Position numbers and translations under genes: made by a program. Below are positions 8,250-62,547 of a stretch of 64,000 nt of DNA, in pieces. The stretch spans positions 3,317,536 to 3,381,535 of the forward strand of contig CBDCGL010000011.1 in NCBI GenBank assembly GCA_965216755.1, given 5' to 3'. The notes below the pieces were generated by a model that ran no database searches, was not told the DNA's origin, and saw only the letters and a program-made list of their open reading frames with translations. Origin of the DNA: Alphaproteobacteria bacterium (GTDB taxonomy: Bacteria > Pseudomonadota > Alphaproteobacteria > UBA7887). Each line of letters opens with the position of its first letter. Within the stretch, counting starts at the first letter, position 1.

Positions 8250-8308
8250 GTGTTGTCGGGCGTCTTTTCGTGTCGTGTCAATATCTGGTGCGTCACGGCG
8301 GGAATCAC

Positions 8309-13884: not shown

Positions 13885-14781
13885 TTACCAATGGGAAGGA
13901 TCTACGACCCCTTCAGGCAGATCGCGGCCGATGGTCAAGGCCGTGGCGATCAGGTTCGAGTCGAGCCGCGTGCCGGTGTCCGTCGATGCCGGCAACTGGT
14001 CTTTGCTATCGACTCCAACCACAATCGATGCCACCCCCGGCACCGCCCGCACAACGCCTATGGCCAATTGCCATGGCGACAAACCGGCGTCGCTGGCCAA
14101 GGCGTGCAAGCGCGCGACCGGTTCTTTAAGAGCGGCCAACCGTGCGGTGATCGCGTCCGGTTGTGCCAACAGCAGGCCCTGCAGAAACACGCTGCGCGCC
14201 CACACGAAGACCCCGGCCGTGGCCGCCTCTGCAATCACGTCGGAGCGGATAAAGGCCTGATTGAAAACATTGATGGGAATCTGCAGCAGACGCAGATTTG
14301 GCACGGCCAGCGCAGCACGGGCCTGCGCAACGGTATAGACCGAGGCGCCGAACGCCCCAACTTGACCTGTCTCGGCGGCGCGGCACAGCGTGTCGACGAT
14401 GTCGTTGCGCGCCAAATTGTCGGGCCGATGGGCAAGATAGCCGTCGATTCGCGCCGCTCCAAGCCGGCGTCGAGATTGGTCCAATTGGCGGTGGAGTTCC
14501 GCAGCGTCGCCGCAGTCGCCGAATTTACTGATCAACAAAGGCGTGTGGGCGCGCGTCCGGCGCCAGGCACCGATCCGCATTTCGGCATCGCCATAGGCGT
14601 GGGCGGTGTCAAAACAAGTCATTCCCGCCGCCCATGCGGCATCCAAGACCGCCAGGGCAGCCGCCTCTGTCGGTTTGCCTTCGCGGTTGGCAATACCATA
14701 GGCCATGCCGAGCTGGGCCGTCCCCAAGGTCAGCGTTGGGATCGATCGTTTGCCGGGGCCGGGGAATAGCTGATCTGCCAT
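13885..14781 (-). CDS. aldo/keto reductase family oxidoreductase
   Basis: 298 aa; AKR pattern (LGTAQLGMAYG ... FDTAHAYG). ATG at 14781. The antisense 292-aa ORF 13891..14769 is a shadow frame. Confidence 0.8.
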   Translation of the reverse strand: MADQLFPGPGKRSIPTLTLGTAQLGMAYGIANREGKPTEAAALAVLDAAWAAGMTCFDTAHAYGDAEMRIGAWRRTRAHTPLLISKFGDCGDAAELHRQLDQSRRRLGAARIDGYLAHRPDNLARNDIVDTLCRAAETGQVGAFGASVYTVAQARAALAVPNLRLLQIPINVFNQAFIRSDVIAEAATAGVFVWARSVFLQGLLLAQPDAITARLAALKEPVARLHALASDAGLSPWQLAIGVVRAVPGVASIVVGVDSKDQLPASTDTGTRLDSNLIATALTIGRDLPEGVVDPSHW

Positions 14782-24272: not shown

Positions 24273-24899
24273 ATGGCGCGCGAACCGACCGCGCGCGACG
24301 GTCGCGAACAAGCGATTGTTCGCGAAGTTCTTGAACGGATCGACGAATCGCAAGAGATCAGTCAGCGGCAATTGGCCTCGGATTTGGGGATCGCCTTGGG
24401 CATGGCCAACGCCTATATCAAGCGCTGCATTCGCAAGGGCTGGATCAAGGTCAACGAGGCGCCGGCCCGCCGCTATCGCTATTACCTGACGCCAAAAGGG
24501 TTCGCCGAAAAAAGCCGACTGACGGCGCAATACTTTTCTGATTCCCTGCGTTTTTTCGGCCGCGCCCGGCAAAGTTACGATGCCTTGTTCGCGCAATTGG
24601 TGCGGCGCGGCGCGCGCCGCGTGGTGCTGTGCGGTGCCGATGAGCTGACTGAAATCGCGGCACTGTGCGCCCTGAAACACGATGTTAAGGTGGTCGGCGT
24701 GCTGCGCGGCGATGGGCGCGATGATCCGCTTGCCGGGCTACCGGCGATCGGCGAAGCATCTGCGGGCAATGTCGACTATTGGGTGATCGCCAGCTCCAGC
24801 GACGCCGCGCCGCTCTATACGCGAATTGGCGCCGCCAAAGGGCTTGATCATGTTGCCTATCCAGAGCTGTTGCGCCGGGTGGTGGGCGCGGCGCAATGA
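24273..24899 (+). CDS. winged-helix (MarR/ArsR-like wHTH) regulator with C-terminal Rossmann-like domain
   Basis: N-terminal wHTH (REVLERIDESQEISQRQLASDLGIALGMANAYIKRCIRKGWIKV). ATG overlaps the upstream stop (TGAATG region). Confidence 0.55.
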   Translation: MAREPTARDGREQAIVREVLERIDESQEISQRQLASDLGIALGMANAYIKRCIRKGWIKVNEAPARRYRYYLTPKGFAEKSRLTAQYFSDSLRFFGRARQSYDALFAQLVRRGARRVVLCGADELTEIAALCALKHDVKVVGVLRGDGRDDPLAGLPAIGEASAGNVDYWVIASSSDAAPLYTRIGAAKGLDHVAYPELLRRVVGAAQ

Positions 24900-26029
24900 G
24901 CGTGCCATCTGCGCGGCGGCCCTTGCACATGTTTGAACCCGATTTGGGTGATGCCGAAGAGCAGGCGGTCGTGGCGGTTTTGCGGTCTGGCTGGGTTGCC
25001 ATGGGGCCCAAGGTCGAGGCCTTTGAAGAACGATTTGCTGCGTTGACCGGGTCCGGCCACGCGGTTGCAGTGGGGTCGTGTACCGCCGCCCTACATTTGA
25101 CCAATCTGGCCCTGGACATCGGACCAGGCGACGACGTGATCGTGCCGTCGCTGACCTTCGCGGCGACCGCCAACGCCGTCCACATGACCGGCGCGACCCC
25201 GGTGTTCGCCGATGTTGTCGGGCCTGACGATTGGACGATCTCCGCCGATGACGTGGCGCGAAAATTGACCGACCGGACGCGGGCGGTCATCGCCATGCAT
25301 TATGCTGGCCACGCGGCTGACATGGATCGCCTGGCGGCGGTGTGCCAAAAGGCTGATGTCGACTTGATCGAAGACGCCTGCCACGGTCTGGGTGGGCAGC
25401 TTGGTGATCGCGCGCTCGGCGCCATCGGTCGAGCCGGATGTTTTAGTTTCTATAGTAATAAATTGATCACCACCGGCGAGGGCGGCATGGTGACCACCGA
25501 TGACCAAGCGCTGGCGGAACGGATCAAACGCTTGCGTTCGCACGGCATGACCGCGACGGCGATCGATCGCGTGCGCGGTGCCATGATCTATGACGTGACC
25601 GAACCTGGCCTCAACTATCGTCTGGATGACCTGCGCGCGGCCCTGGGCCTGGCACAGTTGGATCGGATCAATGACAAATTGGCCCGTCGGCACGAATTGG
25701 TCGCCCGATACGAGTCGCGCTTGGCGGTTATGGACGGCGTCGCAACGCCCGATTGCGGCCGGCGCGGTCGCTCGGCCCACTATCTGATGCCGGTGCGGCT
25801 GACGCAAGCCGATCGTGATGCGGTGCGTCGCCGATTGCAGGCCGATGGCATTCAAACGTCGGTGCATTACCGCCCGGTCCATCAATTTGCACACTATCGT
25901 GATCAGGCCACACCTTTGCCGCTGACCGAGGACATCGGCGCCAAGACTCTCAGTTTGCCACTCTATCCAAGCATGACTTTGGACCAAGTCGACCGCGTCT
26001 GTGACGCCCTGGCCGAGGCCGCGGGATAA
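24896..26029 (+). CDS. DegT/DnrJ/EryC1/StrS family PLP-dependent sugar aminotransferase (LegC/PglE-like)
   Basis: 377 aa; aspartate-aminotransferase fold type I sugar aminotransferase pattern with conserved Lys region (FSFYSNKLITTGEGG). Confidence 0.85.
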   Translation: MSVPSARRPLHMFEPDLGDAEEQAVVAVLRSGWVAMGPKVEAFEERFAALTGSGHAVAVGSCTAALHLTNLALDIGPGDDVIVPSLTFAATANAVHMTGATPVFADVVGPDDWTISADDVARKLTDRTRAVIAMHYAGHAADMDRLAAVCQKADVDLIEDACHGLGGQLGDRALGAIGRAGCFSFYSNKLITTGEGGMVTTDDQALAERIKRLRSHGMTATAIDRVRGAMIYDVTEPGLNYRLDDLRAALGLAQLDRINDKLARRHELVARYESRLAVMDGVATPDCGRRGRSAHYLMPVRLTQADRDAVRRRLQADGIQTSVHYRPVHQFAHYRDQATPLPLTEDIGAKTLSLPLYPSMTLDQVDRVCDALAEAAG

Positions 26030-47712: not shown

Positions 47713-48726
47713 GTGACCACATCCACCCGCCCGTCGCTTGACGACAAATCGATCCTTGTCACCGGCGGGACGGGGTCGTTCGGCCAGCGTTTTGTCGATA
47801 CAATTGTGTCACAGCATCGGCCACGCCGCTTGATCGTGTTCTCGCGGGATGAAGCCAAGCAATATGAAATGGCGCAGCGTTTTGATATGGTGCGCTATCC
47901 GTTTCTTCGCTATTTTATTGGCGATGTGCGCGATGCCGATCGGCTGGAGATGGCGATGCGTGACATCGATATCGTTATCCATGCGGCGGCGCTGAAGCAT
48001 GTCCCGGTGGCTGAATACAATCCGTTCGAATGCATCCACACCAATGTGCTGGGGGCAGAGAATGTGGTGCGGGCGGCGATCCGCAGCGGCGTCAAACAGA
48101 CCTTGGCCCTGTCGACCGACAAAGCCTGCAGTCCGATCAATCTTTATGGCGCGAGCAAATTGGCGGCCGACAAGATATTTGTCGCCGCGAACAATCTTAG
48201 TCCGAAGGACGGCACGCAATTTTCGGTCGTGCGCTATGGCAACGTTCTCGGCTCGCGCGGCAGCGTCGCGCCTTTGTTCCAGCGCCTGGTGCGCGAGGGC
48301 GCCGATCACTTGCCGATTACCGATGCGCGCATGACCAGGTTTTGGATCACGCTGCAAAACGGTGTCGATTTCGTGCTCAGTTGCATTGACCAAATGGTTG
48401 GCGGCGAGATTTTCGTGCCTAAGATCCCGAGTATGCGCGTGGTCGACTTGGCGCGCGCGATCGGGCCGAGCCTGCCCCACAAGATGGTCGGGATTCGGCC
48501 CGGCGAGAAGCTGCATGAAGTCTTAATCACCGAAGACGACGCGCGCAATACGTTGGAGTTAGAGGACCGCTATATCATCCAGCCGGTGTTTCAGTATTGG
48601 ACACGCCAACGTTTGGCGAGCGATGCTGCCAGAGCCGTTGACGAATCGTTTCGTTATGCCAGCGACACGAATGAAAATTGGCTCGATCCGGCGCAATTGG
48701 CGCGCCTGATGGCGCAACCACAATGA
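47713..48726 (+). CDS. UDP-N-acetylglucosamine 4,6-dehydratase (inverting), PseB/FlaA1-type short CapD
   Basis: ILVTGGTGSFG ... YGASK, 337 aa, typical PseB length and motifs. Confidence 0.85.
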   Translation: MTTSTRPSLDDKSILVTGGTGSFGQRFVDTIVSQHRPRRLIVFSRDEAKQYEMAQRFDMVRYPFLRYFIGDVRDADRLEMAMRDIDIVIHAAALKHVPVAEYNPFECIHTNVLGAENVVRAAIRSGVKQTLALSTDKACSPINLYGASKLAADKIFVAANNLSPKDGTQFSVVRYGNVLGSRGSVAPLFQRLVREGADHLPITDARMTRFWITLQNGVDFVLSCIDQMVGGEIFVPKIPSMRVVDLARAIGPSLPHKMVGIRPGEKLHEVLITEDDARNTLELEDRYIIQPVFQYWTRQRLASDAARAVDESFRYASDTNENWLDPAQLARLMAQPQ

Positions 48727-49766
48727 TGCACGCAATTGGCGCACAACCCGCGGCACCCAACGTGACACCACGCTGGGGATTTCGCGTCGCCTCCAGCCCA
48801 ACAGTCGGTGCTGGCCACATGGTCCGCAGTCTGGCTGTGGCGCAGGCGATCGGGGCGCCGGTCCATTTTTTTGTCGATCCCGATAGTCAGTGGGACACCG
48901 CCTTGGCCGCTGGCGATTTCGCGTCGACCAAGGAAAACGCGACGCATAGCGTTGCCGCGTTATTCGAAGCGGTCGTGGCCGGCCAAGTGAATGCGGTTTT
49001 GTTTGATGGCTATGGATTTCGCGAACGCGTGATCGAAACCGTCAGCCGCAAGGCTTTTACGGCGGCCTTCTCCGATGATGGTGTCGGCCGGCCAGCGACA
49101 TTGCTGATCAATCCATGCCCGGACGGACGCCGCGACGATCGAACCCTGACCGGTTTGGAATACGCACCCCTGGCCGCCGCCTATGCTGACATGCACAGCC
49201 GCGCCTATCGGCGCAGCGACGCCGAAGCACCACATGTGCTGATCGCATTCGGCAGCCGCGACAGCAGCAACTGTACGGGCCTCGCTTTGGATGCCCTGAC
49301 CGCGGTCGATGCTCCGCTTCCCGTGACCGTTGTGCTCGGCGCGCGGGCGCCGCACCAGGCTGAGGTTCGGCGCCAAATCGCCGCCCTGCCGCAGGCGCAG
49401 TTGTTGATCGATTGCGACGATATGGCAAGCCTCTACATGTCGGCGACGTTGGCCATCGGTGCGCCCGGCGTGTCATTTTTCGAACGCATGTGTTGTGGTC
49501 TGCCGTCGATCTTGGTGTTGCAGAACGCCACCCAGCGACCGGTGGCGCGCTGGGCGCGCGACCGGGATGTCGCGGCCGTGGCGGAAACGGATAGCGCCGC
49601 AGTTGCAACTGTTCTGCGTCGGGTGATGGACGATGCAACATGGCGCCGGGCGGTACGGCGGCGGGGCCTTGAGTGGGTCGATGGACGGGGCGCCGATCGG
49701 CTCGCCGCGGCGTTGAATGCGCGCGCGGCAGGGGCGGCGCGGAGTGCGTCGTCGTCAACGGGATAA
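48723..49766 (+). CDS. PseG-like UDP-sugar hydrolase, copy 2
   Basis: TVGAGHMVRSLAVA GxGHxxR motif, GT-B-like C-terminal half. ATG 48723 overlaps the PseB stop (ATGA). Confidence 0.6.
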   Translation: MMHAIGAQPAAPNVTPRWGFRVASSPTVGAGHMVRSLAVAQAIGAPVHFFVDPDSQWDTALAAGDFASTKENATHSVAALFEAVVAGQVNAVLFDGYGFRERVIETVSRKAFTAAFSDDGVGRPATLLINPCPDGRRDDRTLTGLEYAPLAAAYADMHSRAYRRSDAEAPHVLIAFGSRDSSNCTGLALDALTAVDAPLPVTVVLGARAPHQAEVRRQIAALPQAQLLIDCDDMASLYMSATLAIGAPGVSFFERMCCGLPSILVLQNATQRPVARWARDRDVAAVAETDSAAVATVLRRVMDDATWRRAVRRRGLEWVDGRGADRLAAALNARAAGAARSASSSTG

Positions 49767-49779
49767 TCTCGTCATCGCC

Positions 49780-51672
49780 ATGATGACCCTGTGTTTCGTC
49801 GATAGTCTGGACGGTGTGCATCGGGCCCAGGCCATCGCCAAGGACTGCGTGCTTGCCAGCGATAATCCACTTCTGGCGCATGATCCCGCCGTGGCTGGGC
49901 GCATCGACGATACCAGCCGATATCTGGATCAGCGTGCCGCGACGCGGCTGGGCCATCGCGCCATAGATATTTTGTTGGCTATCGATGAGGCGTTAGAGAA
50001 GCATGATGCGGCGGCTCGGTATGGCGGACGAACCAGCCCCGTCAATGTCACAATCGTCATGCGCGCATTGTTGGCCACGTTGATGCAGCGGGGCACCATG
50101 GCCGCGGCGGCGGCGCGCGCCAACGGCGATGGCATGCTCCACATCATGGGTCTTGACGCGCCGCGCTGGATGGTGCGCCATCCGTGGACTCTACCGCGCT
50201 TTGCCTCGCCCTTGCGGCCGTTGGCCGAACACGGCTTCTTCGGCAATCGCCGATGGCGGTTCGACCCGGTGGCCACGACCGTGCCGGCGGCGGTCAATGA
50301 CACCGCCGTCGACGATCCCTTGTTGCGCGCGCGCGTATTGCCCATGTCGGTGTTGGCCTATGAAGCCGCGCATCGTATCGGGTTGACTCGCATCGGTTGG
50401 CGGCGCGGCGTGGCGGTCGGCAAATCCAGCGAAGCGTTGCGCGAGACGTTGCCGTGGCTTGCCCTGCGCGGCCACCGGTTGGCCCGTTTCAACGTGCCGG
50501 ATTACGCAGGTGCCGCGCCCCCCAGTTACGATGTCGAACCGACGATCGACCCATGGTTGAACAGACTTGTCGCCCCCATCGTGGCGCGTGGTGCCACGGT
50601 TGACGGTTTGCTGTCAGCGGCCGAAGGTCATGCGATCGGCCGCACTTTTATGGTCTATTTGAGTGCCGGTATGGCGTCATTGGCGCAGACGGTCGCGCGC
50701 TTGGACCAAGCCCTGGAAAACAGTTTCAACGGTTACGATCGTCGTCGGGCTTTGGTGACCAGCGGCATCTATGGTCCCATGGGCACGCAGCTTCACGCGC
50801 TTTGTCGATCGCGTCGCGTGCCTGTGATCGATTTCGAGCATGGCGCCACGACGGGCTTGGCCCATACATCTGAACGTCGCCTGCGAGTTTCGGAAGCCAG
50901 CAGTTGTGACTTGTTGGCGGTGTCTTCGGATCGCGCGGCGGGCTCGTTTCGCAAAGCGCGCCGCGATGATAGGCCGCGCATCCAGGTGATCGGTTTGGCC
51001 GATCAGACCAGGCGGGTTTTGGGGCGTGGTCTACAGCGCCAGCGCGCGCGCCGGCGCCTGGGACTTGGACCCCGTGATGTTGCGGTCATGCATATCTCGA
51101 CATTGCTGTATGGCGGCAACATGCGGCCGGGCGATGACAGTCCCACGGAAAGTTATGTGTTTGAAACGGAAAAAACGCTGTTAACCGAGGTCTATGGCGA
51201 TAACGGCAAATCGGTTCTATTCAAACCCTATCCGACCCAACGATTCGTTCACCAACCATCATATGACATGCTGTTCGATTTGCCGCCTGGTGTGCGATTG
51301 ATCGATTGGGCGGACTTCCGTTATGTGCGCGCCGCCGCCGATATCATTGTCACCGGGGCCAACAGCAGCACCATCGGGTGGTGCGTTGGCGCGGACGTCC
51401 CGTTGGTGCATCTCGGTTCACGGATCGTCCACCGCCTGGTCGATGATGCCTTGGCAGATGCATTCCGCGCGGCGTTTTTTTGTGTCGATATGGATGCGGC
51501 CGACTGGCCGACACGGCTGCGCGACCTGTTAGGGCACGAGCTGTCGTGGTTTCAGGATGGCTGGCGGGAAATGCGCGCGGCGCGGCGGGCGCTGTTAACC
51601 GAAGGGATCGTTGGTCCGCAAGGGTCGGTGGGGCGCCGCGCGGCGCGGTTAGTCGAGGCAAGTCTTGCCTGA
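49780..51672 (+). CDS. uncharacterised 630-aa protein; third member of the KpsC/S-like paralog set (candidate nonulosonate transferase)
   Basis: C-terminal VLFKPYPTQ ... DIIVTGANSSTIGWCVGADVPLVHLG, the same pattern as 32946..34148 and 46097..47677. No other recognisable domain by eye. Confidence 0.35.
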   Translation: MMTLCFVDSLDGVHRAQAIAKDCVLASDNPLLAHDPAVAGRIDDTSRYLDQRAATRLGHRAIDILLAIDEALEKHDAAARYGGRTSPVNVTIVMRALLATLMQRGTMAAAAARANGDGMLHIMGLDAPRWMVRHPWTLPRFASPLRPLAEHGFFGNRRWRFDPVATTVPAAVNDTAVDDPLLRARVLPMSVLAYEAAHRIGLTRIGWRRGVAVGKSSEALRETLPWLALRGHRLARFNVPDYAGAAPPSYDVEPTIDPWLNRLVAPIVARGATVDGLLSAAEGHAIGRTFMVYLSAGMASLAQTVARLDQALENSFNGYDRRRALVTSGIYGPMGTQLHALCRSRRVPVIDFEHGATTGLAHTSERRLRVSEASSCDLLAVSSDRAAGSFRKARRDDRPRIQVIGLADQTRRVLGRGLQRQRARRRLGLGPRDVAVMHISTLLYGGNMRPGDDSPTESYVFETEKTLLTEVYGDNGKSVLFKPYPTQRFVHQPSYDMLFDLPPGVRLIDWADFRYVRAAADIIVTGANSSTIGWCVGADVPLVHLGSRIVHRLVDDALADAFRAAFFCVDMDAADWPTRLRDLLGHELSWFQDGWREMRAARRALLTEGIVGPQGSVGRRAARLVEASLA

Positions 51673-52702
51673 AACCCGCGCCATCCGGATCGGCGACCGG
51701 GTGATCGGGCCAGGACGTCCCTGCTTCGTCATTGCCGAGATCGGCATCAATCATGGCGGGGATGAACATGTCGCGGCGGCGCTGATCGAGGCGGCGGCCG
51801 GGGCCGGCGCCGATGCGGTGAAGTTTCAAACCGTGTTGCCCGACGAAAGTTATCAGCCTGGCACCGACTCGTACGCCGCCTTTCAAGGATCTGTGCTGAG
51901 CGTAGCGGCGATGCAGCGGCTGAATGCGCGCGCCGAGTCACTGGGTATTGTGCCGTTTTCGACACCCGGCGGATTTGGCGCCTTGGATTTGATGGTCGAA
52001 TCGGGCATGGCGGCGATCAAGATTTCGTCGGGTCTGTTGACCAATGGTCCATTGATCGAACGTGCCGCCGCCACGGGGTTGCCGCTGGTCCTGTCGACGG
52101 GTATGGCCGCCTGGGACGAAGTTGAGGCTGCGATCCGCACCGCGGAACAGGCCGGCGCCCACGAATTGGCCGTTCTGCAATGTACGTCGCTTTATCCGGC
52201 AGCGGCCGAAACACTCAACCTCCTTGCTATGACAACAATGGCGCAATCAATCGAATATCCGGTTGGCTATTCGGACCATCATCCCGGTCACCTGGCTGTC
52301 GTGGCGGCGGCCGCGCTGGGCGCCAACGTGATCGAAAAGCATTTTACCTTGGATGCCGCGCGATCCGGGGCGGACCATGCGATTTCCGCTGAACCCGACG
52401 CATTCGCTAATATGGTCGCGGCGTTGCGTCAAGTGGAGGTGATGCGCGGCGATGGCGTGAAGGAACCGCGCGCCGCAGAGCGGGCATTGCGCGATGCGCG
52501 CCATCGCTACTTGGTGGCCGCGCGTGGAATCGTTGCTGGCGCGGAGTTTGCCGCAGAGGACATCGCCTTGTTGCGTTGCCGGCCCGGAGTCGGCCGGCTT
52601 CCGGCCAATGCCTATCACACGGTCATCGGTGCGCGTGCACGCGCCGCGATCGCCGCCGGCACGGCCCTGGACGCGACGATGATCGAACGGCGCGGCGGCT
52701 GA
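51665..52702 (+). CDS. NeuB-family nonulosonic acid synthase, copy 3 (PseI-like)
   Basis: FVIAEIGINHGGDEHVAAALIEAAAGAGADAVKFQ NeuB signature. Start uncertain: TTG 51665 overlapping the upstream stop, or an internal GTG. Confidence 0.85.
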   Translation: MPETRAIRIGDRVIGPGRPCFVIAEIGINHGGDEHVAAALIEAAAGAGADAVKFQTVLPDESYQPGTDSYAAFQGSVLSVAAMQRLNARAESLGIVPFSTPGGFGALDLMVESGMAAIKISSGLLTNGPLIERAAATGLPLVLSTGMAAWDEVEAAIRTAEQAGAHELAVLQCTSLYPAAAETLNLLAMTTMAQSIEYPVGYSDHHPGHLAVVAAAALGANVIEKHFTLDAARSGADHAISAEPDAFANMVAALRQVEVMRGDGVKEPRAAERALRDARHRYLVAARGIVAGAEFAAEDIALLRCRPGVGRLPANAYHTVIGARARAAIAAGTALDATMIERRGG

Positions 52703-52713
52703 CCGTGCGCGTG

Positions 52714-53739
52714 ATGATCACCGCCGCCGGCGGCGCATTGGCAACCCAGACGATTGCGTGCGCCAAGACCAGTCAGCGTTATGCGATCGATGTGGTTGCG
52801 GTGGATTTGGATGACATGGCCCTTGGTCGTTACGCGGCGGATATTTTCGCCACGGTGCCGCGCGGCGATGCGCCTGGCTATGTTGACCGGGTCTGCGCGT
52901 TGGTCGCGGCGCACGACGTCGAATTGGTGCTGCCCTGCTCGGATGAAGAAGCCCTGGCCTTGGCGGCCGAACGCGCGCGCCTGACCGCATTGGGATGTGC
53001 GCTCGCCTGCGCCGATATCGAGACCTTGCGCCTGATGGCCGACAAAGGGCGCGCCTATCAGCAATTGCGCGCCGCGGGCCTGCCGGCACCGGACGGCCGC
53101 TTGGTCAAAACCGCAGCTGCGCTTGATGATGCGATTGATGTCTTTTTCCGCCGCGAAGGTGCGTTTGTTGTCAAACCGCCGTCCGGCTCGCGCGGCGGCC
53201 GCGACACGTTTATCATCCACCAAGACGTGCGCGGCGCGCGGCCGTTTTTCGGCGCGCGCGAATTGGAGATGGATTTCGATACATTTCGAAGCGATTTTCG
53301 ATCCCGGGCGTTGGAACGCTTGCCGGTCTTGGTCTGCGAACGCTTGGTGCCGCCGGCTTACGATGTCGATGTGCTGGCACGCGACGGGGTTGCTTTGCGC
53401 GCCGTGCCGCGACGGCGCCTAAATCCGGCCGGCGTCCCCTATCGCGGTTATGTGGTCGAAGCGCGGGACGATCTGGTCGATTTGGGCCGGCGCACGGCGG
53501 CGGCGCTCAACCTGTCATGGTTGTATGATTTCGATGTCATGCTCAGGACCGACGGCACGCCGGCCATTCTGGAACTCAATCCGCGCCCAAGCGGCAGCTT
53601 CGCGACCGCGATCGTCGCCGGACAACCGTTGATCGACGATTTGGTGGCTTTGGTCAAAGGCGACGAGATTGGCGCCGCGCCACCGCTGCCACACAGCCTG
53701 ACCATTGTTCCCGAGACGCTGTTGAAGGTGGTCAACTGA
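52714..53739 (+). CDS. ATP-grasp domain protein
   Basis: Three-domain ATP-grasp pattern (pre-ATP-grasp Rossmann; central GAFVVKPPSGSRG; C-terminal LELNPRPSGS). Start ATG 52714 or GTG 52705. Confidence 0.65.
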   Translation: MITAAGGALATQTIACAKTSQRYAIDVVAVDLDDMALGRYAADIFATVPRGDAPGYVDRVCALVAAHDVELVLPCSDEEALALAAERARLTALGCALACADIETLRLMADKGRAYQQLRAAGLPAPDGRLVKTAAALDDAIDVFFRREGAFVVKPPSGSRGGRDTFIIHQDVRGARPFFGARELEMDFDTFRSDFRSRALERLPVLVCERLVPPAYDVDVLARDGVALRAVPRRRLNPAGVPYRGYVVEARDDLVDLGRRTAAALNLSWLYDFDVMLRTDGTPAILELNPRPSGSFATAIVAGQPLIDDLVALVKGDEIGAAPPLPHSLTIVPETLLKVVN

Positions 53740-53768
53740 CCCACACTGTTGGCATCGTTCAAGCTCGC

Positions 53769-55760
53769 ATGGGATCGACCCGACTCCCCGGCAAGGTGTT
53801 GGCCGATATCGGCGGCATGCCGGCGATCGGGCACCTGCTGCGCCGCGCCGGGCGGGCCCGGCAGGTTGACGCTTTGTGGCTGGCCTGTAGCACGGCCGCG
53901 GCCGATGATCCGTTGGCGGATTATGTGCGTGGCCTGGGTGTCTCGGTTTTTCGCGGCGACGAACACGACGTGTTGAGCCGCTACGCCGCGGTCGCGGCGG
54001 AGACTCGTGCCGATGTCATTGTGCGGCTGACCGGCGATTGCCCCTTGATTGATCCGGCCGTGATCGATGCTGTGGTGGCACGTTTTCACAGTGCCGATGT
54101 CGATTTCGCTTCGAATACACTCCAGCGCAGCTATCCCGACGGTCTCGATGTCGAGGTGTTTGGCCGTGACGCTTTGGCGCGCGCCGATCGCGAAGCGCGT
54201 GATCCGTTCTTGCGCGAGCATGTCACGCCCTATATTCATGGTCGCCATAAAGAACGCCTGCCGTGGGGCTATTTCAGCCATGACCAGGTTGTTTTCGAAG
54301 CCGACTTCAGTCACCTGCGGTGGACGCTGGATACGGCCGCCGACTTGTATTTTTTGCGCCGTTTGGTCGAACGCGCCGGTGCCAAGGCCAGCTGGCTGAC
54401 ATTGCTCGCCGCGTCGAGCCAGTCGCCGCCGCTCTATCACAGTGTGCCGGCCGTGCCGACCGCAGTCCGCCAACCACGCACATTCGAACAGTCCAACCGA
54501 ATGTTCGAACAGGCCTCGCGGGTCATTCCACTTGCCAGCCAAACTTTTAGCAAGAGTCACCAGCAATGGGTGCGCGGCGCCGCGCCGCTGTTTCTGACCC
54601 GTGGCGACGGCTGCCGCGTGTGGGACATCGACGACAATAGCTATATCGATTTCGTCCTCGGCTTGCTGCCCGTGGTGCTTGGCTATCGCGACCCAGACGT
54701 TGACGCTGCGATCCGCGATCAGCTCAACCAGGGCATCACGTTTTCGTTGCCCCATCCGCTCGAAGCCGAGGTTGCCGCGCGTTTGGTTGATCTCATCCCG
54801 TGTGCGGACATGGTGCGCTTCGGCAAGAACGGCTCGGACGCGACGACGGCGGCCGTGCGCCTGGCGCGTGCCCATACCGGCCGCGACAAAGTCGCCTTAT
54901 GTGGCTATCACGGCTGGCATGACTGGTATATCGGCACGACCACGCGCGGCGATGGCGTGCCCGCCCCGGTGCGGGCGCTCTCGCATGTCTTTCCCTACAA
55001 CGATCCGCAGGCCCTCGACGACGCTCTGGCGGCGGACCCGGACGGTTTCGCGGCGGTGATATTGGAACCCGTTGGTGTGCAGACGCCGGCGCCGGGATTT
55101 CTTGATCATCTTCGCGCCGTGACCGCTCGCTATGGCGTCGTGCTCATTTTCGACGAGATCATCGCCGGATGTCGTGCCCACATGGGTGGCGCCCAGGCTG
55201 TTTATGGGGTGACGCCGGATCTGGCCGCGTTTGGCAAAGCCATGGCCAACGGCATGCCGCTGTCGGCCGTTGTCGGCCGTCGCGATATCATGATGGGCAT
55301 GGAAGAAATATTTTTCTCGGCAACGTTTGGTGGCGAAACTTTATCCCTGGCCGCCGCGCGCGCGACACTGGACAAACTCGTGCGGCTGGACGGTCCCGAT
55401 CGGCTGGCGCGCTTGGGCACCGACTTGGCCGACCGCGCCAATGCCCATTTCGCTGCGCACGGTCTAAATGAATGGCTCGGCATTGCCGGCGCCGCGTGGT
55501 GGCCGCGTTTGGCCATCACGGCGCCACCGGTGCCCATGAATGTGATGGTCAGCCTGCTGCGTCAGGCGTTCGTCGCCAATGGTCTGTTGCTCGGCGCCAG
55601 CCTTAATCTGTCGCTGGCGCACGACGACACAGTCGTGATCACGCATGTGGACCAGGCGTTCAACAGTGCGTGCGCGCAAGTGCGGGCCGCGCTCGACAGT
55701 CGCGACCCGGCCACGCAGGTACACGGCGCGTTGGTGCAACCGACCTTTGCCGTGCGATGA
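53769..55760 (+). CDS. fusion protein: N-terminal acylneuraminate cytidylyltransferase (PseF/SpsF-like) plus C-terminal class-III (glutamate-1-semialdehyde aminomutase-like) PLP aminotransferase
   Basis: N-terminal (IVQAR)MGSTRLPGKVL CTase motif. C-terminal class-III aminotransferase pattern (GITFSLPHPLEAEVAARL ... FDEIIAGCR ... ). The reading frame is open upstream of ATG 53769, so the true start may be an unusual codon. Confidence 0.75.
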   Translation: MGSTRLPGKVLADIGGMPAIGHLLRRAGRARQVDALWLACSTAAADDPLADYVRGLGVSVFRGDEHDVLSRYAAVAAETRADVIVRLTGDCPLIDPAVIDAVVARFHSADVDFASNTLQRSYPDGLDVEVFGRDALARADREARDPFLREHVTPYIHGRHKERLPWGYFSHDQVVFEADFSHLRWTLDTAADLYFLRRLVERAGAKASWLTLLAASSQSPPLYHSVPAVPTAVRQPRTFEQSNRMFEQASRVIPLASQTFSKSHQQWVRGAAPLFLTRGDGCRVWDIDDNSYIDFVLGLLPVVLGYRDPDVDAAIRDQLNQGITFSLPHPLEAEVAARLVDLIPCADMVRFGKNGSDATTAAVRLARAHTGRDKVALCGYHGWHDWYIGTTTRGDGVPAPVRALSHVFPYNDPQALDDALAADPDGFAAVILEPVGVQTPAPGFLDHLRAVTARYGVVLIFDEIIAGCRAHMGGAQAVYGVTPDLAAFGKAMANGMPLSAVVGRRDIMMGMEEIFFSATFGGETLSLAAARATLDKLVRLDGPDRLARLGTDLADRANAHFAAHGLNEWLGIAGAAWWPRLAITAPPVPMNVMVSLLRQAFVANGLLLGASLNLSLAHDDTVVITHVDQAFNSACAQVRAALDSRDPATQVHGALVQPTFAVR

Positions 55761-56233
55761 CCGTGACCCTACGCCGCGCCCTGGCCACGGATCGCGATCA
55801 GCTCTTGGCTTGGGTCAACAGTCCGGATTCCTTGGCTGGCAAGCTACGAACCATGGGCCCCATCGCGGCAGCCGACCACGCACAATGGTTCGCGGCGCGC
55901 CTCGCGGATGACGACTGCATGATTTGGATTATCGAGCGAAACGATACCGCCGTTGGCCAAATCCGCCTGGAAAAAGATGACGTGGGCCATGCCGTTGACA
56001 TCTATGTCGTAGCGGCCGCACGGCGCCATGGCTGTGCGGTGTCGGCACTGCGCCAAGCGCTCGACATGCATTTCGCGGGTCGGCCGGACAGTCGTGTGGT
56101 TGCGCGGATCAAACCGGACAACATCGCGTCACGACGCCTGTTTGAACGCGCCGGGTTTCAGCTGACGGCGGATGGCGACGATCATCTGATTTACGCGCTA
56201 CGGCCGCCCAAGATCGCGGGGGATGTCCCATGA
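55757..56233 (+). CDS. GNAT family N-acetyltransferase (PseH-like)
   Basis: 158 aa; GNAT core (IWIIERNDTAVGQIRLE ... AARRHGCAVSALRQAL ... RLFERAGF). ATG 55757 overlaps the upstream stop (ATGA). Confidence 0.75.
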   Translation: MTVTLRRALATDRDQLLAWVNSPDSLAGKLRTMGPIAAADHAQWFAARLADDDCMIWIIERNDTAVGQIRLEKDDVGHAVDIYVVAAARRHGCAVSALRQALDMHFAGRPDSRVVARIKPDNIASRRLFERAGFQLTADGDDHLIYALRPPKIAGDVP

Positions 56234-56904
56234 CCGCGGCCGTGATTGTCGCCCATCCCGACGACGAGGTTCTGGGCTTCGGTGGAGTCATGGCTCGCCA
56301 TGCCGATGCGGGTGAGGCGGTGCATGTGATGTTTTTGGCGACCGGCCTCGCGGCCCGTCATGAGACCAACACGGTTGACGCTGGCGCCCTGGCGGCGCTG
56401 CGCGATCAGGCTCGTGCGGCCGCAACAGTATTGGGCGCACACCCACCTGACTTCGCTGATTTTCCGGACAATCGCATGGACAGCGTCCCATTGCTCGACA
56501 TTGTCCGCGCCGTCGAAGGTTTTCTCACCGCGCATACGCCAACCACCGTCTACACCCATCACGGCGGTGACCTGAACATCGACCACGCTGTTGTTGCGCG
56601 CGCGGTACTGACCGCCTGTCGGCCGCTGCCCGGTGGGTCGGTTCGTGCGCTCTACGCGGGTGAAGTGCTGTCTTCAAGCGAGTACGGTCACCCTGACGCC
56701 CGGTTTGTGCCCCAGCGTTATGTCGACATTGATGCGCAATTGACGCGCAAATGTCAGGCCCTGCAATGCTACCATGACGAGCTGCGGTCATGGCCGCATC
56801 CGCGATCCGTCGCGGCCGTGACCCATTGCGCGCGGCTGCGTGGCAGCGAATGCGGTGTGCCGGCAGCCGAAGCATTTCAACTTATCCGTGCGGTCGAGAT
56901 TTGA
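56230..56904 (+). CDS. PIG-L/LmbE family N-acetylglucosaminyl deacetylase
   Basis: AHPDDEVLGFGG N-terminal zinc-binding motif, HHGGDLNIDH. Confidence 0.85.
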   Translation: MTAAVIVAHPDDEVLGFGGVMARHADAGEAVHVMFLATGLAARHETNTVDAGALAALRDQARAAATVLGAHPPDFADFPDNRMDSVPLLDIVRAVEGFLTAHTPTTVYTHHGGDLNIDHAVVARAVLTACRPLPGGSVRALYAGEVLSSSEYGHPDARFVPQRYVDIDAQLTRKCQALQCYHDELRSWPHPRSVAAVTHCARLRGSECGVPAAEAFQLIRAVEI

Positions 56905-57021: not shown

Positions 57022-57942
57022 GTGATTGGTTTGGGGCCAATCGCGTATGAAATCCCGCGCCGGCGTATCGCGAATATCGATCGCCTAACGGCGTTGAACG
57101 CGTCGGAGCAGCTGCTGCATGACAAGATCGGCGTTATGGAAGTAGCGCTTAAAGAGCCCGATGACGAGTCGTCCGATCTGTGTGTCAAAGTCGCGGACAA
57201 GCTATTCGCCAGCGGCGTGATCGAACCAGCAGACGTCGAATGCGCGATCGTTGTCACCCAAAATCCGGATGACCACGGCTTGCCACACACCTCGGCGGTG
57301 GTTCACGACAAGGTCGGTTTGCCGGACCGTTGCGCCGCCTTCGACATTTCACTGGGATGCTCCGGGTTTGTTTATGCGTTGTCGGTGATGCGGGCGTTCA
57401 TGGTCGAGAATGACCTGCGCCGCGGTCTGCTGTTTACCGCCGATCCCTATTCCAAGGTGATCGACCCGACGGATCGCAATACGGCGATGCTGTTTGGCGA
57501 TGGCGCGGCGGTGACGCTGATTACGGACGAACCGACATGGATTCCCGGCAAGTTTGATTTCGGCACGCGCGGCGCGGCGCGCGACACTTTGCGGGTGCAG
57601 CCGGATGGCAAGCTTTTTATGAACGGCCGGGCGGTGGCGCAGTTCAGTGCCACCGAAGTCCCCCGCAGCATCGAACGGGCGATTACCGCCAACGGTCTGA
57701 CATTTGACGATATCGACCGGTTCGTGTTGCACCAGGGGAGCCGTTACATCGTTAACGCCATTTCCAAGCGCCTGGGGATCGAAGACCGCACGGATTTCAC
57801 CGCGCAGGAATTTGGCAACACGGTGTCGTCGTCGATTCCGATCGCCCTGGCGCGGGATTTGAAAGCCGAAGACCGGCGCGTTCTCATTTCCGGTTTCGGT
57901 GTCGGCTTGTCGTGGGCGACAACTGTTCTTGAGCGGGTCTAG
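57022..57942 (+). CDS. 3-oxoacyl-ACP synthase III (FabH-like KAS III)
   Basis: 306 aa; FDISLGCSGFVYAL active-site Cys, HQGS and NTVSSSIP His/Asn regions. GTG 57022 preceded by GAAGAGGA SD. Confidence 0.8.
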   Translation: MIGLGPIAYEIPRRRIANIDRLTALNASEQLLHDKIGVMEVALKEPDDESSDLCVKVADKLFASGVIEPADVECAIVVTQNPDDHGLPHTSAVVHDKVGLPDRCAAFDISLGCSGFVYALSVMRAFMVENDLRRGLLFTADPYSKVIDPTDRNTAMLFGDGAAVTLITDEPTWIPGKFDFGTRGAARDTLRVQPDGKLFMNGRAVAQFSATEVPRSIERAITANGLTFDDIDRFVLHQGSRYIVNAISKRLGIEDRTDFTAQEFGNTVSSSIPIALARDLKAEDRRVLISGFGVGLSWATTVLERV

Positions 57943-57966: not shown

Positions 57967-59811
57967 ATGTCCGGTTTGTGTCTTGTGGCGGGTGCGGCCG
58001 ATGCGGCGACACGCATTCGTGGCCCGTTGGCGCGCTTGGGGGCGGATGGGACACCGTCGACCCACGTCGGCGCGCAAATCGCGATCGGCGTCGTCAACCG
58101 GAACCGCCTGGGCGTTGGCGCGACACTCGAAACATTCGCGGATGGCTTGGTCGTCGCGCTCGACGGTGAGATTCTGGATGATGGGCTGGACGGTCAAAGT
58201 CCGTCGGCGCATGTGGCAGAACTCTATGCGGCCCAGGAGCTGGACAAGTTGGCGTGGCTCAACGGTTCTTTCGCGGTGGCGATCTATGATCCCGCCCGCG
58301 CGACCGTGGTGGCCGCGAGCGATCGATTCGGGTCCCGGAGTTTGTTCATTTGGCATGACGGCGTCCGACTATCGATCGCCAGCCGTCTGGCCGTTTTGCT
58401 GGCCGACGACCGCGTGCCACGGCGGCTGAGCGGCCAGGGGATCACGGAACTGCTGCGCTTTCAACGCACGGTCGGCGACCATACCCAATATGCCGATATT
58501 CGCGCTTTGCCGGCGGCCGCCGTGTGGTTGTTCGCCGACGGACGTGTAACCCGGCGGCAATCTCGACGTTTGGCTTGGCGGCGGCCCGACTTTGATCAAC
58601 GCGAAGGCGCCCAGCTCTTGGCAGCGGCCATGCGTCGGGCAACCGCGCGCGCGGCAACGGCGGCCATGCCGGGGCTGCTGCTGTCGGGGGGCCTCGACGC
58701 CCGTTGGGTGATGGTCTGTGCACGCGCCGAGGGGCGCACTTTGTCATGTCTCACCACGGCCACCCACGACAACGACGAAGTCGCGATCGCGCGCGCCAGC
58801 GCGGCGCGCGCGCGCATGTCGTTTCGGTTTGTGCGCACGCCGCCGGATTCGCTACCGACGGTTTTCGACGCGGCAACGGTCGCGTCCGACGGTCTGTTTC
58901 AGGCGCCGATCAACCTTTACGGATTGCTGCCGGCGGCGGCGGCCGAACATGATGTCTTGTTGTCCGGTCACGGGCTCGATTATACGTTCCGTGGCTATTA
59001 TTTGCCATGCAAGTCGATTCGTTTGGGTCGTTCGACGACACGTTTGCCAATGTTGCAGCCGGTGCCGGATGGCAGGCCGGCGACCGTGCTGGCGTCGTTG
59101 CGCGTGTCGCCGGCGGCGGCGGTGGCGGGGCGCCTGTTGCGCGGCGCCATGGCCGAGGCCTGGGACGACCGCGCCGAAAGTGCAATGGCAACGGCGTTGG
59201 CCTATGCCGACATCGAGGATCCGTACAACGCCTGGGATGCTTTTATCCTTCATTGCCTAGGCCGGCACTATGCGTACTCGGATTTCGTTGCGATGCAATC
59301 GGTGGTCGGCCATCGCGCAGTGTGTTTTGATCATGCGGTGTTCGATCTCTATTTGGCGATGCCGCCGGCCTGGCGCGCATCGGGGCGCATGGCCCATGCC
59401 GCGATGATGGCGGTCGGCGCGGATTTGATGGGGTTGCCGGATGCCAACAGCGGCGTCGCCGCGCGCCACCCCTTCGGCACCCAGTTGGCACTGGCTTATG
59501 GCCGCGCGGCGTTGCGTCGCCTGGGTCTGCTGCGCACGGGGCCGCTGGGCGCGGCGGCGGAGACGCGGGGCTCGTGGGCGGACTATGGGGTCTTGCTCAG
59601 GGCTAACGCGGACATACGCGCGCGGGCGGAAAACCTGGCAACCAACGCCGCCCTGTTGGACAGCGGCATGTTCGACGCCGCCGGTGTGCGGTCGGTTGTC
59701 GCCGACCACATGGCTGGGCGGGCCAATCATAAACGGGTGCTGTTTCAACTGATGACGCTGGCGTCATGGCTGGGGACCCACGGTTATGACCGCGCCGATC
59801 TCGCCGCCTGA
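57967..59811 (+). CDS. asparagine synthetase (glutamine-hydrolysing)-like amidotransferase (AsnB/WbpS family)
   Basis: N-terminal Ntn glutaminase domain, central LLSGGLDARWV PP-loop-like region. Probable true start is TTG 57976, giving Met-Cys-Leu-Val-Ala-Gly with the catalytic Cys at position 2. Confidence 0.75.
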   Translation: MSGLCLVAGAADAATRIRGPLARLGADGTPSTHVGAQIAIGVVNRNRLGVGATLETFADGLVVALDGEILDDGLDGQSPSAHVAELYAAQELDKLAWLNGSFAVAIYDPARATVVAASDRFGSRSLFIWHDGVRLSIASRLAVLLADDRVPRRLSGQGITELLRFQRTVGDHTQYADIRALPAAAVWLFADGRVTRRQSRRLAWRRPDFDQREGAQLLAAAMRRATARAATAAMPGLLLSGGLDARWVMVCARAEGRTLSCLTTATHDNDEVAIARASAARARMSFRFVRTPPDSLPTVFDAATVASDGLFQAPINLYGLLPAAAAEHDVLLSGHGLDYTFRGYYLPCKSIRLGRSTTRLPMLQPVPDGRPATVLASLRVSPAAAVAGRLLRGAMAEAWDDRAESAMATALAYADIEDPYNAWDAFILHCLGRHYAYSDFVAMQSVVGHRAVCFDHAVFDLYLAMPPAWRASGRMAHAAMMAVGADLMGLPDANSGVAARHPFGTQLALAYGRAALRRLGLLRTGPLGAAAETRGSWADYGVLLRANADIRARAENLATNAALLDSGMFDAAGVRSVVADHMAGRANHKRVLFQLMTLASWLGTHGYDRADLAA

Positions 59812-60976
59812 TAACCGCAGCGCGCGTGTGCTGCACGTCGACATCGAAGGCGGCTGGGGCGGCTCGTCGCGCAGTTTGTACGAACTAATTCGCTGCCTCG
59901 ATCGGCGGCGGATCGTACCGCTGGTCGCACACCGTCAGCGCGGACCGATCGAGGCACGGTACCGGGCCTTGGGCGTCCCGACCGCGCATGTTCCGACGAT
60001 CGGCTCGTTTGTGCCCCGGGCCGAGAAATGCGCGCGCAATTTTGTCGCGTCGCTGCCGCGTTTGGCCAAACTGCCGACGGCCGCTGCGCAACTGACGGCG
60101 CTGGCCCGGTCGCACCGGGCGGACCTGATACATCTCAACTATGAAGGTTTGTTCTTGTTGGCACCGAAGCTCAAACGCCGCCTTAACCTGCCGATCGTTT
60201 GTCATTGCCGCGCCTTGTTGCCGACCAATCCCTGGGGCCGTTGGCTTGCTAACAAATTGCGCCAATGCGCGGATCATCTGTTTTTTATATCGCCGCAAGA
60301 GGCTGAGCGTTTCGCCGAATTGGTCGATCATCAACCGCATCGCGGCACGGTGGTCTGGAACATCGCCGGCGGCGTCGATACGCCGCAAACCATGGCGACG
60401 CCGCCGGAAGCGGTTTATCTGGGCAGTATCGATCCGTTCAAAGGCACCGACCGCTTGATCGATATTGCGGTCGCTTTGGCGCGCGCCAAGTCGCCCCCAT
60501 TGATCATTGCGGTCTATGGTGAAAATCGCGCGCGGCCCGGCTATCGCGCCGCCCTGGAACGTCAAGCGCGCGATGTTGGCGTCGCCGACCGGATCGTGTT
60601 TCGTGGGCATACCGCCGAACCGGAACGCGCGATTGCCGGTGCCTTGGCAGTGATCCGGCCGTCGCGCGGCAATGACCCCTGGGGGCGCGACGTGATTGAG
60701 GCGACGGCGTTGGGTGTGCCGGTTCTGGCCACCGGCAGTTATGACGGCGTCGTCGCACCAGGTCGCACGGGTTATTTATATGATCCGTTTGATGCCGACG
60801 CCATGGCTGCGCAGTTAGTGCGCATGGCCACGAATCCGACACATCGCGCGCAGCTATCGCAGGCCGCGCGCGCCAAAGGGGCGGCACGGTTCGGCGGCGG
60901 CGCCCAGGCCCGGACGGTCACGGATATATTTCTTGAACTCGCCGCCTTGCGCGACACGGATAAGGCTGCGGCATGA
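59786..60976 (+). CDS. glycosyltransferase family 4 (GT-B, group 1)
   Basis: C-terminal EAxxxGxPV-type region (DVIEATALGVPVLATGSYDG). Start uncertain (ATG 59786 overlapping AsnB by 26 nt, or GTG 59828). Confidence 0.75.
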   Translation: MTAPISPPDNRSARVLHVDIEGGWGGSSRSLYELIRCLDRRRIVPLVAHRQRGPIEARYRALGVPTAHVPTIGSFVPRAEKCARNFVASLPRLAKLPTAAAQLTALARSHRADLIHLNYEGLFLLAPKLKRRLNLPIVCHCRALLPTNPWGRWLANKLRQCADHLFFISPQEAERFAELVDHQPHRGTVVWNIAGGVDTPQTMATPPEAVYLGSIDPFKGTDRLIDIAVALARAKSPPLIIAVYGENRARPGYRAALERQARDVGVADRIVFRGHTAEPERAIAGALAVIRPSRGNDPWGRDVIEATALGVPVLATGSYDGVVAPGRTGYLYDPFDADAMAAQLVRMATNPTHRAQLSQAARAKGAARFGGGAQARTVTDIFLELAALRDTDKAAA

Positions 60977-62546: not shown

Positions 62547-62547
62547 A

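Follow-up and report, generated by a model that had tools for sequence, protein, structure and literature searches.

Can an aminotransferase fused to a sugar-activating enzyme take the place of PseC in a pseudaminic acid (Pse)-like pathway? The question is raised by a 64,000-nucleotide stretch of the genome of an Alphaproteobacteria bacterium (GenBank assembly GCA_965216755.1, contig CBDCGL010000011.1, positions 3,317,536 to 3,381,535; hereafter the window). One of its gene modules, module 3, encodes a cytidylyltransferase (CTase) joined to a class III aminotransferase (AT) that resembles glutamate-1-semialdehyde (GSA) aminomutase. A sequence-only reading of this gene had noted that the module has no PseC of the DegT family, and had proposed that the fusion either supplies a non-canonical C4 transamination or performs a different amination on the nonulosonate. 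Here we conclude with high confidence that the two domains are a conserved accessory pair rather than a PseC substitute, and that their translation starts at a CTG codon. On comparative grounds the class III domain is predicted to be an accessory tailoring enzyme, because DegT genes co-occur with its family in 54 of 62 loci, including all five of the closest relatives.

These counts come from 86 loci annotated by tblastn and all-against-all clustering, of which the 62 with at least 6 kb on both sides were counted. The 54 loci with both DegT and the AT family show none of the mutual exclusion that a substitute would predict, and a 55th DegT, in locus L004, is cut by the locus edge. The five closest relatives are contigs from Agaricicola taiwanensis, a Pelagibacteraceae metagenome-assembled genome, Kiloniella and two metagenomic sources, and in every one DegT stands with PseB beside the same fusion. 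Their gene order is PseB, DegT, (formyl-/acetyltransferase), PseG-like, a protein of ~620 amino acids (aa), NeuB, ATP-grasp and fusion, followed by GNAT, PIG-L, AsnB-like and GT4 genes. Together with the PseC-like gene elsewhere in the window, this speaks against a C4 transamination by the fusion. A different amination fits the comparative data, since loci without PseB and DegT still combine the AT with NeuB, a CTase and an oxidoreductase.

Within the window, a domain scan found no DegT gene at 47.7-60 kb, and the PseB, PseG-like and 651-aa genes abut or overlap, leaving no room for a DegT remnant. Loci L005 and L008 have the order PseB-PseG-DegT-unk651, and the window has this order without that DegT. 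The absence of a DegT-type PseC therefore holds locally and fails for the window as a whole, which contains three DegT genes. One of them, DegT1 (24896..26029, + strand), is PseC-like: it scores 345 bits with TIGR03588 and matches the solved PseC 2fn6 at 3.8e-47, against 1.8e-32 for PglE (1o61). The DegT genes that flank PseB in the relatives also match DegT1 (30-40% identity) over the other two. DegT1 lies ~22 kb upstream of PseB, in a module with no 4,6-dehydratase of its own. As judged from these sequences, the lineage probably lost its local DegT, and DegT1 would carry out the C4 amination after PseB in trans. Two points cut the other way. DegT1 could instead serve a pathway to legionaminic acid based on uridine diphosphate (UDP) sugars and fed by the PglF-like gene at 6345-8729, and loci L049, L072 and L076 also have PseB with no DegT within 10 kb.

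These three loci pair PseB with CTase-AT, and they are part of what could be said for the class III domain having taken over the PseC step here, aminating the UDP-4-keto product of PseB. The same idea could draw on module 3 itself, with its PseB, its lack of DegT and its gapless gene order, and on DegT3 (62515-63693, + strand) being clearly of WbpE type and committed elsewhere. We nevertheless regard such a takeover as very improbable. Beyond the co-occurrence with DegT in the survey and in the closest relatives, every family-invariant residue is kept in the window domain, with no sign of re-specialisation. A PseC-like DegT is present 22 kb upstream in a module without its own dehydratase, and we know of no class III enzyme that uses nucleoside diphosphate (NDP)-4-keto sugars. 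DegT3 was also considered as the missing PseC and was rejected; its match to PDB 3nyu is at 5.5e-95, and it sits with WbpB- and WbpD-like genes.

Analysis of the open reading frames (ORFs) showed that the interval 53769-56233 contains two genes. The fusion ORF spans 53736..55760 on the + strand and encodes 674 aa from CTG 53736, or 663 aa from the first ATG (53769..55760). Residues of the fusion protein are numbered from CTG 53736. The end at 56233 that had been assigned to the fusion belongs to a separate GNAT gene (55757..56233). The fusion of a CTase with a class III domain that depends on pyridoxal phosphate (PLP) is real, with both Pfam domains above cut-off in one ORF: CTP_transf_3 (PF02348) at aa 5-174 (2.8e-29, 102.9 bits against a cut-off of 22.6) and Aminotran_3 (PF00202) at aa 283-567 (2e-46, 158.9 bits against 30.5). 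Neither the DegT model PF01041 nor the PseC model TIGR03588 matched the fusion protein.

The CTase domain (53736..54440, ~aa 1-235) was delimited with PDB 6oew, the KdsB/KpsU structure 1gq9 and the invariant columns of a family alignment (A1). Its nearest solved structure is 6oew, an uncharacterised cytidylyltransferase (2.3e-36), and 1gq9 follows at 1e-11. Although it had been described as PseF-like, the domain is of SpsF type and had no match at E<=0.001 to the PseF equivalog TIGR03584 (cut-off 205.7 bits). Because genetics in Bacillus subtilis place SpsF at the step where finished legionaminic acid is activated with cytidine monophosphate (CMP) and transferred (Dubois et al. 2020, PMC7439481), the analogy supports reading this domain as a putative CMP-nonulosonate synthetase. 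The linker that follows (54441..54470) is the least conserved region of the fusion family. It corresponds to a gap at columns ~246-266 of A1 and is ~19 residues shorter in the window fusion than in all eight aligned homologues.

The AT domain (54468..55757) was placed by Pfam, NCBIfam and alignments. Its top NCBIfam model is NF004856, 'GSA aminomutase PRK06209', at 345 bits against a cut-off of 486, and the HemL equivalog TIGR00713 gives 234 bits against 527. A true HemL was thus rejected, as the domain falls well under both equivalog cut-offs. Its closest solved relative is the GSA aminomutase 5i92 (6.3e-57), and the class III sugar aminotransferase GenB (7lld) is related at 1e-39. Further solved relatives include a 6'-epimerase/aminotransferase (9aue) and amino-acid racemases (9wrf, 9wqz), and D-phenylglycine aminotransferase and beta-transaminases are among the close ones.

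Both domains retain their predicted catalytic residues. In the CTase, these are the QARxxSxRLPGK loop (R11, R16, K20), the DCP motif (D101) and the PDGLD motif (D135, D138). The PLP-binding lysine, whose absence would have refuted the sequence-only reading, is present as K501 (codon 55236-55238) in the motif FGKAMANGMP, whose counterpart in four solved GSA aminomutases is FGKIIGGGMP. D473 (55152-55154), in FDEIIAGCR, aligns with the aspartate of their FDEVMTGFR motif, which we take to bind the PLP pyridine nitrogen. K501 and D473 are invariant among fused and standalone relatives (alignments A1 and A2). The N-terminal loop NSPVRAF of GSA aminomutases is replaced by a family-invariant SQTFSKS, in which K273 stands in place of the Arg; this Arg is presumably the residue that binds the substrate, or its carboxylate, in GSA-aminomutase structures.

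Where does the protein begin? The sequence-only reading had called the start non-canonical, and the frame is indeed open for 80 codons upstream of ATG 53769, from a stop at 53526, without a single ATG, GTG or TTG. Alignment with homologues places the start at CTG 53736 (53736..53738, + strand). The 11 codons before the ATG encode L-T-H-T-V-G-I-V-Q-A-R, and these residues line up one by one with the N-termini of the homologues MTRVVTIVQARM, MTKVVAVIQARM and MTTVAIVQARM; the homologue consensus is MT(R/K)VV..IVQARM, compared with LTHTVGIVQARM in the window. At the DNA level, CTG 53736 falls exactly on the ATG of the closest homologues. There, the ATG and the preceding gene's stop codon share bases as ATGA, and in the window the CTG overlaps the TGA of the upstream ATP-grasp gene (53737-53739) as CTGA. 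An AAGGTGG motif resembling a Shine-Dalgarno sequence lies a few bases before the CTG, at 53725-53731, and ATGA overlaps recur at the fusion/GNAT and GNAT/PIG-L junctions. As read from the sequence, translation of the fusion most likely starts at CTG 53736, by coupled re-initiation. Alternatively, the change from ATG to CTG may lower expression.

The corrected start matters for the predicted active site. Gln9, Ala10 and Arg11 are invariant in the family (A1), and all three are encoded upstream of the annotated ATG, so that R11 is present in the loop that binds cytidine triphosphate (CTP) only with translation from the CTG. In the CMP-Kdo synthetase KpsU (1gq9), the residues aligned with Arg11 and Lys20 are Arg10 and Lys19, which in this KdsB/NeuA family we take to bind the CTP phosphates. 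In the public annotation, translation begins at the first ATG (53769..53771, + strand), probably an internal codon for Met12, and the product, P0001, is 100% identical to that of the 663-aa ORF. This annotation probably begins the protein 11 residues late and truncates the enzyme, because Arg11, the predicted catalytic CTP-binding residue, sits upstream of the annotated ATG. A CTG start within a CTGA stop/start overlap would be a rare case of non-canonical coupled initiation.

The unusual start also raises the question of whether module 3 is decaying, with the loss of DegT, the change from ATG to CTG and the deletion in the linker leaving a fusion that is poorly expressed or inactive. The CTG in place of the homologues' ATG, the ~19 aa missing from the linker and the DegT lost relative to L005 and L008 fit this view, as do two more NeuB/CTase modules elsewhere in the window. 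However, all genes of the module are full-length, with no frameshifts or internal stops, and all invariant residues are retained. The CTGA overlap and the Shine-Dalgarno-like motif can support coupled re-initiation, and the shortened linker lies where the family is least conserved. Decay is very unlikely in our estimate, only marginally less so than a takeover of the PseC step.

The rarity of the fusion that had been implied is not borne out, as this is a common architecture. More than 120 full-length fused homologues (~685 aa, 46-65% identity) were found, mostly in alphaproteobacteria, and the AT family is present in at least 597 species genomes (one genome per species). Its hosts are Proteobacteria, Acidobacteriota, Actinomycetota, Chloroflexota, Firmicutes, Planctomycetota, Bacteroidota, candidate phyla and one archaeon. 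The suggested comparison with standalone class III aminotransferases beside CTases was also made, and such relatives occur in the same gene context. When the AT domain was compared with representatives at 50% identity, standalone proteins (~430 aa, up to 57% identity) were interleaved with the fusions, and the two forms are equally close to the window domain.

Across the survey, the constant companions of the AT are a synthase, an activating enzyme and an oxidoreductase, and not PseB or PseC. NeuB is present in 60 of the 62 loci and a CTase in 61, directly upstream of the AT or fused to it in 52, and any recognised oxidoreductase in 53 (aldo/keto reductase, AKR, in 30; GFO/IDH/MocA in 20). PseB is found in 53, PIG-L in 16 and ATP-grasp in 7. 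The slot between DegT and CTase can be taken by AKR or by GFO, which are never found together, and the commonest order is PseB-DegT-(AKR or GFO)-CTase-AT-PseG(/GNAT)-NeuB. The AT has several fusion partners, in the forms GFO-AT, GFO-CTase-AT, GNAT-CTase-AT and AT-SDR, the last with a short-chain dehydrogenase/reductase (SDR). A compact variant without PseB and DegT (L078, L082, L085, L086) consists of a TagF-like glycerophosphotransferase, CTase, AT, SDR, KdsC-like HAD phosphatase and NeuB, and hints at amination of a Kdn/Kdo-type ulosonate. The compact variant also carries a protein of the fatty-acid-hydroxylase family, and L078 and L086 add a transketolase N-terminal subunit. In L054, L067 and L071, DegT and GFO are separated by a B12-binding radical-SAM gene (~500 aa), which may provide C-methylation or another radical tailoring step.

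What, then, does the pair do? We give roughly even chances to the whole explanation, in which the fusion is the joined form of a conserved pair, an SpsF-type CMP-nonulosonate CTase and a GSA-aminomutase-like AT, with a tailoring role. The specific mechanism of oxidation followed by amination, as modelled from gene content, is somewhat less probable than that. The AT would take as its substrate the nonulosonate formed by NeuB, either free or CMP-activated. A partner oxidoreductase (AKR, GFO/IDH/MocA or SDR) would make or handle a keto group from a secondary hydroxyl, and the AT would transaminate that carbonyl, giving an extra amino substituent or a re-set amino-bearing centre. The free C4 and C8 hydroxyls are candidate positions; an 8-amino nonulosonate is reportedly found in Tenacibaculum. 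The GNAT, PIG-L, ATP-grasp and AsnB-like enzymes would then re-acylate the sugar, and the CTase domain would supply the CMP-activated donor. In the window subgroup, N-acetyl may be replaced by an N-acylated, possibly amidated, amino acid. Mycothiol synthesis by MshB, MshC and MshD follows a parallel deacetylase-ligase-GNAT logic. More broadly, and tentatively, CTase, AT and oxidoreductase may form a post-synthase branch of nonulosonate biosynthesis in at least about 600 species, installing a third amino group or re-setting a stereocentre, with the window version building an N-(acyl-aminoacyl) derivative and the fusion channelling between activation and amination.

Several points weigh against this proposal. 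We infer the substrate, the aminated position and the reaction direction alike, because no enzyme of the family has been characterised. The window and its four closest fully flanked relatives (L001, L005, L006, L008) have no adjacent AKR, GFO or SDR gene. The fusion itself is no proof that the AT uses a CMP-sugar, because fusions also join steps that are not consecutive, as in GNAT-CTase-AT. Finally, AKRs usually reduce carbonyls, which fits deamination followed by reduction equally well.

Because of this usual reductive direction, a role in deamination and reduction, or in epimerisation, is a serious rival, although we consider it unlikely. After N-deacetylation by PIG-L, the AT would deaminate or epimerise the amino carbon at C5 or C7; AKR or GFO would reduce the keto group, or the AT would re-aminate from the other face, and GNAT or ATP-grasp would re-acylate. 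The outcome would be a different stereoisomer or a hydroxy-for-amino variant, and not a triamino sugar. The mutual exclusion of AKR and GFO in one slot counts in its favour, and alternative NDP-hexose ketoreductases of deoxysugar pathways provide a parallel. Both in the window and in its relatives, the fusion has PIG-L and GNAT genes as flanking neighbours, and the 6'-epimerase/aminotransferase and the racemases are among the solved class III relatives. Post-CMP epimerisation of legionaminic acid (Leg) by accessory genes has also been proposed in Acinetobacter (PMC5595891); the aciABCD literature has the accessory genes acting on CMP-Leg and identifies AciB and AciE as SDRs. On the other hand, PIG-L is found in only the 16 loci given above, no keto-nonulosonate intermediate is documented, and it would be uneconomical for PseC to add an amine that is then taken away again.

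A further alternative places the AT outside the sugar itself. The AT would make an unusual amino acid, such as a D- or omega-amino acid, which the PylC-like ATP-grasp enzyme would join to a sugar amine freed by PIG-L; GNAT would N-acetylate the amino acid and the AsnB-like enzyme amidate it, again with mycothiol-like logic. In support, the window subgroup shows conserved synteny between the fusion and ATP-grasp, GNAT, PIG-L and AsnB-like genes, D-phenylglycine aminotransferase and beta-transaminases are close solved relatives, and N-(N-acetyl-aminoacyl) nonulosonates exist in nature. Yet ATP-grasp is found in only the 7 loci noted above, the constant partners are NeuB, CTase and an oxidoreductase, and the fusions of the AT are to sugar-pathway domains (GFO, CTase, GNAT). 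We consider this route improbable, more so than deamination or epimerisation, and favour the tailoring of a nonulosonate by oxidation and amination.

Module 3 is one tightly packed operon on the + strand, with NeuB two genes upstream of the fusion. A scan of the module for promoters and terminators gave no signal above chance, consistent with a single packed operon. The Pse-type gene labels given to the module hold up in part: among those tested only PseB clears its cut-off, and the 'PseG', 'PseI' and 'PseH-like' genes all fall below their equivalog cut-offs. PseB, the inverting UDP-GlcNAc 4,6-dehydratase (47713..48726, + strand, as are all genes of the module), scores 514 bits with TIGR03589 against a cut-off of 408. 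It is followed by a PseG-like UDP-sugar hydrolase (48723..49766; 123 bits against 153), a conserved 651-aa protein with no family (49717-51672), a NeuB-family nonulosonate synthase (51665..52702; 292 bits with the NeuB model and 222 with PseI, below both cut-offs) and a PylC-like ATP-grasp ligase (52705..53739; Pfam ATPgrasp_Ter and PylC-like_N), which probably starts at 52705-52714. The ATP-grasp gene is syntenic with the fusion in L001-L006 and L008.

Homologues of the 651-aa protein (610-650 aa) are syntenic with NeuB in L001, L002, L004, L005, L006 and L008. A profile search with this protein found no sequence relative in Pfam, NCBIfam or PDB; it could be the transferase or a missing redox partner. 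No AKR, GFO or SDR oxidoreductase adjoins the fusion in the window. An aldo/keto reductase encoded at 13885..14781 (- strand; Pfam Aldo_ket_red) shares 25-37% identity by tblastn with family F6, the AKRs found between DegT and the CTase in 30 of the 62 loci, and is a possible displaced partner of the fusion, as judged from its sequence. It lies 40 kb from the fusion, beside an alpha/beta hydrolase and a methyltransferase-GT2 gene.

Downstream of the fusion, the PseH-related GNAT acetyltransferase (55757..56233; Pfam Acetyltransf_3) has an ATGA overlap with the fusion stop. It is weakly PseH-like (26 bits against a cut-off of 93), and in related loci its homologue is the GNAT half of PseG-GNAT fusions. 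GTG 55670 was tried as its start and rejected, since ATG 55757 with its ATGA overlap fits the lengths of the homologues. The PIG-L/LmbE-family deacetylase (56230..56904; Pfam) is syntenic in the alphaproteobacterial relatives. Next come a FabH-like enzyme (57022-57942) and an AsnB-like amidotransferase (57967-59811), both assigned by NCBIfam and Pfam, and a GT4 glycosyltransferase (59786-60976; Pfam). A trio of GFO oxidoreductase, hexapeptide acetyltransferase and DegT at 60973-63693 (Pfam, NCBIfam, PDB) comprises a WbpB-like GFO/IDH/MocA protein resembling UDP-GlcNAc 3-dehydrogenase (60973-61980, + strand; Pfam, NCBIfam), a WbpD-like gene and DegT3. From its sequence relatives, this is a predicted WbpB/WbpD/WbpE-like set that would make a 2,3-diacetamido sugar and stand apart from the Pse-like module.

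Two further nonulosonate modules lie at 19991-43269. Module 1 (~23-32 kb), which contains DegT1, also has a radical-SAM gene, MarR_EPS, a NeuD-like acetyltransferase, a PseG-like gene, an SpsF-like CTase, NeuB and HisH/WbuZ/WbuX acetamidino genes. Module 2 (~32-43 kb) has a PtmE-like nucleotidyltransferase, the LegC-like DegT (35151-36368), a NeuB/LegI-like synthase, a NeuC/LegG-like epimerase, a second HisF/HisH/WbuX set and a PseF/NeuA-type CTase (42298-43269), which scores 116.5 bits with TIGR03584. A LegB-like dehydratase is encoded on the opposite strand at 19991-21010. The long ORF at 6345-8729 (- strand) has a membrane-bound 4,6-dehydratase domain of PglF/WbpM/CapD type at aa 450-733 and, ahead of it, a region similar to polyprenyl-phosphate sugar transferases. 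By analogy with the UDP-linked legionaminic pathway of B. subtilis (PMC7439481), it is a possible feeder of module 1. The window also encodes a bifunctional CysN/CysC for the synthesis of 3'-phosphoadenosine 5'-phosphosulfate (17026-18927, - strand), a Sulfotransfer_3 protein (45107-46078, + strand), a weak NoeE-like match (21905-22915, - strand) and an ABC exporter (43266-45110). Together, the CysN/CysC and sulfotransferase genes and the exporter suggest a sulfated, ABC-exported surface polysaccharide. Two ORFs in the sugar region, at 46097-47677 (526 aa) and 38547-39926 (459 aa), matched no Pfam or NCBIfam family.

As decorations of flagella, capsules and O-antigens, nonulosonic acids influence how bacteria are recognised by the immune system and how susceptible they are to phages. 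Six enzymes are taken to make up the full Pse pathway. In hundreds of species, Aeromonas and Legionella among them, a class III AT nevertheless accompanies the activating enzyme, usually together with an aldo/keto or GFO reductase. The window gives no new route for the PseC step and adds a clean fused example. For enzymologists, the comparative frame of constant, variable and fusion partners can guide the choice of substrate, and the corrected N-terminus restores a predicted catalytic arginine that the annotated start drops.

Among known systems, PseC performs a PLP-dependent amination in the same pathway, but it belongs to the DegT/DnrJ/EryC1 family and co-occurs with the class III enzyme. 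HemL shares the PLP-Lys, Asp and phosphate-binding motifs with the window AT domain; it differs in its haem context and the Arg of NSPVRAF, compared with a sugar context and the invariant Lys of SQTFSKS here. A similar logic of oxidation followed by amination is seen in WbpB/WbpE (GFO and DegT) and in the aminoglycoside C-6' dehydrogenase with its class III AT (GenB/NeoN type, 7lld). GenB enzymes show that class III aminotransferases act on sugars, and the AT family described here is often fused to GFO or SDR. However, WbpB/WbpE and GenB act on C3 of a UDP-hexuronate or on the primary C6' alcohol, whereas the presumed substrate here is a 9-deoxy nonulosonate with secondary hydroxyls only, and the window has no adjacent dehydrogenase. 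KdnA (Kdo8N) was considered as a class III precedent and rejected, as PDB 5k8b shows it to be of DegT type. SpsF of B. subtilis belongs to the same CTase subfamily (CTP_transf_3) as the window fusion but consists of one domain, and no class III aminotransferase is encoded in the sps operon. An SpsF-like CTase in a Moritella Pse cluster is fused to an aldo/keto reductase (PMC7371886).

The closest described arrangements are in Aeromonas and Legionella. Group I polar-flagellin glycosylation islands of Aeromonas have the order pseB-pseC-aldo/keto reductase-pseF-class III aminotransferase-pseG-pseI (Forn-Cuni et al. 2021, PMC7874193), and our survey recovered A. cavernicola (L026) with this order. 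As in the window, the two enzyme families are neighbours in a Pse-type cluster that also has PseB, PseC, PseG/H and NeuB. In Aeromonas, though, CTase and AT are encoded by separate genes, with an AKR gene placed between pseC and pseF, whereas the window has the two fused, lacks an adjacent DegT or AKR, and adds ATP-grasp, PIG-L and AsnB-like genes. No link from the 403-Da flagellin glycan of A. hydrophila AH-1 to genotype or to an extra nitrogen was found. In the O-antigen locus of Legionella pneumophila Sg6/12 (Lp6_762-772), GNAT, PseG, a 'glutamate-1-semialdehyde aminomutase', an acylneuraminate cytidylyltransferase, AKR, DegT and CapD form one block (PMC3694923). The families are again the same, with an SpsF-type CTase, a CapD/PseB-like protein and NeuB nearby, but the genes are separate, acetamidino genes (HisH/HisF/WbuX) are inserted, and the block is known from annotation alone. 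Literature linking class III aminotransferases or GSA aminomutases with nonulosonic acids, pseudaminic acid or flagellar glycosylation was descriptive only, with no biochemistry. The gene arrangement has thus already been described, without a function, in Aeromonas and Legionella, and the window contains a fused member of this common gene pair.

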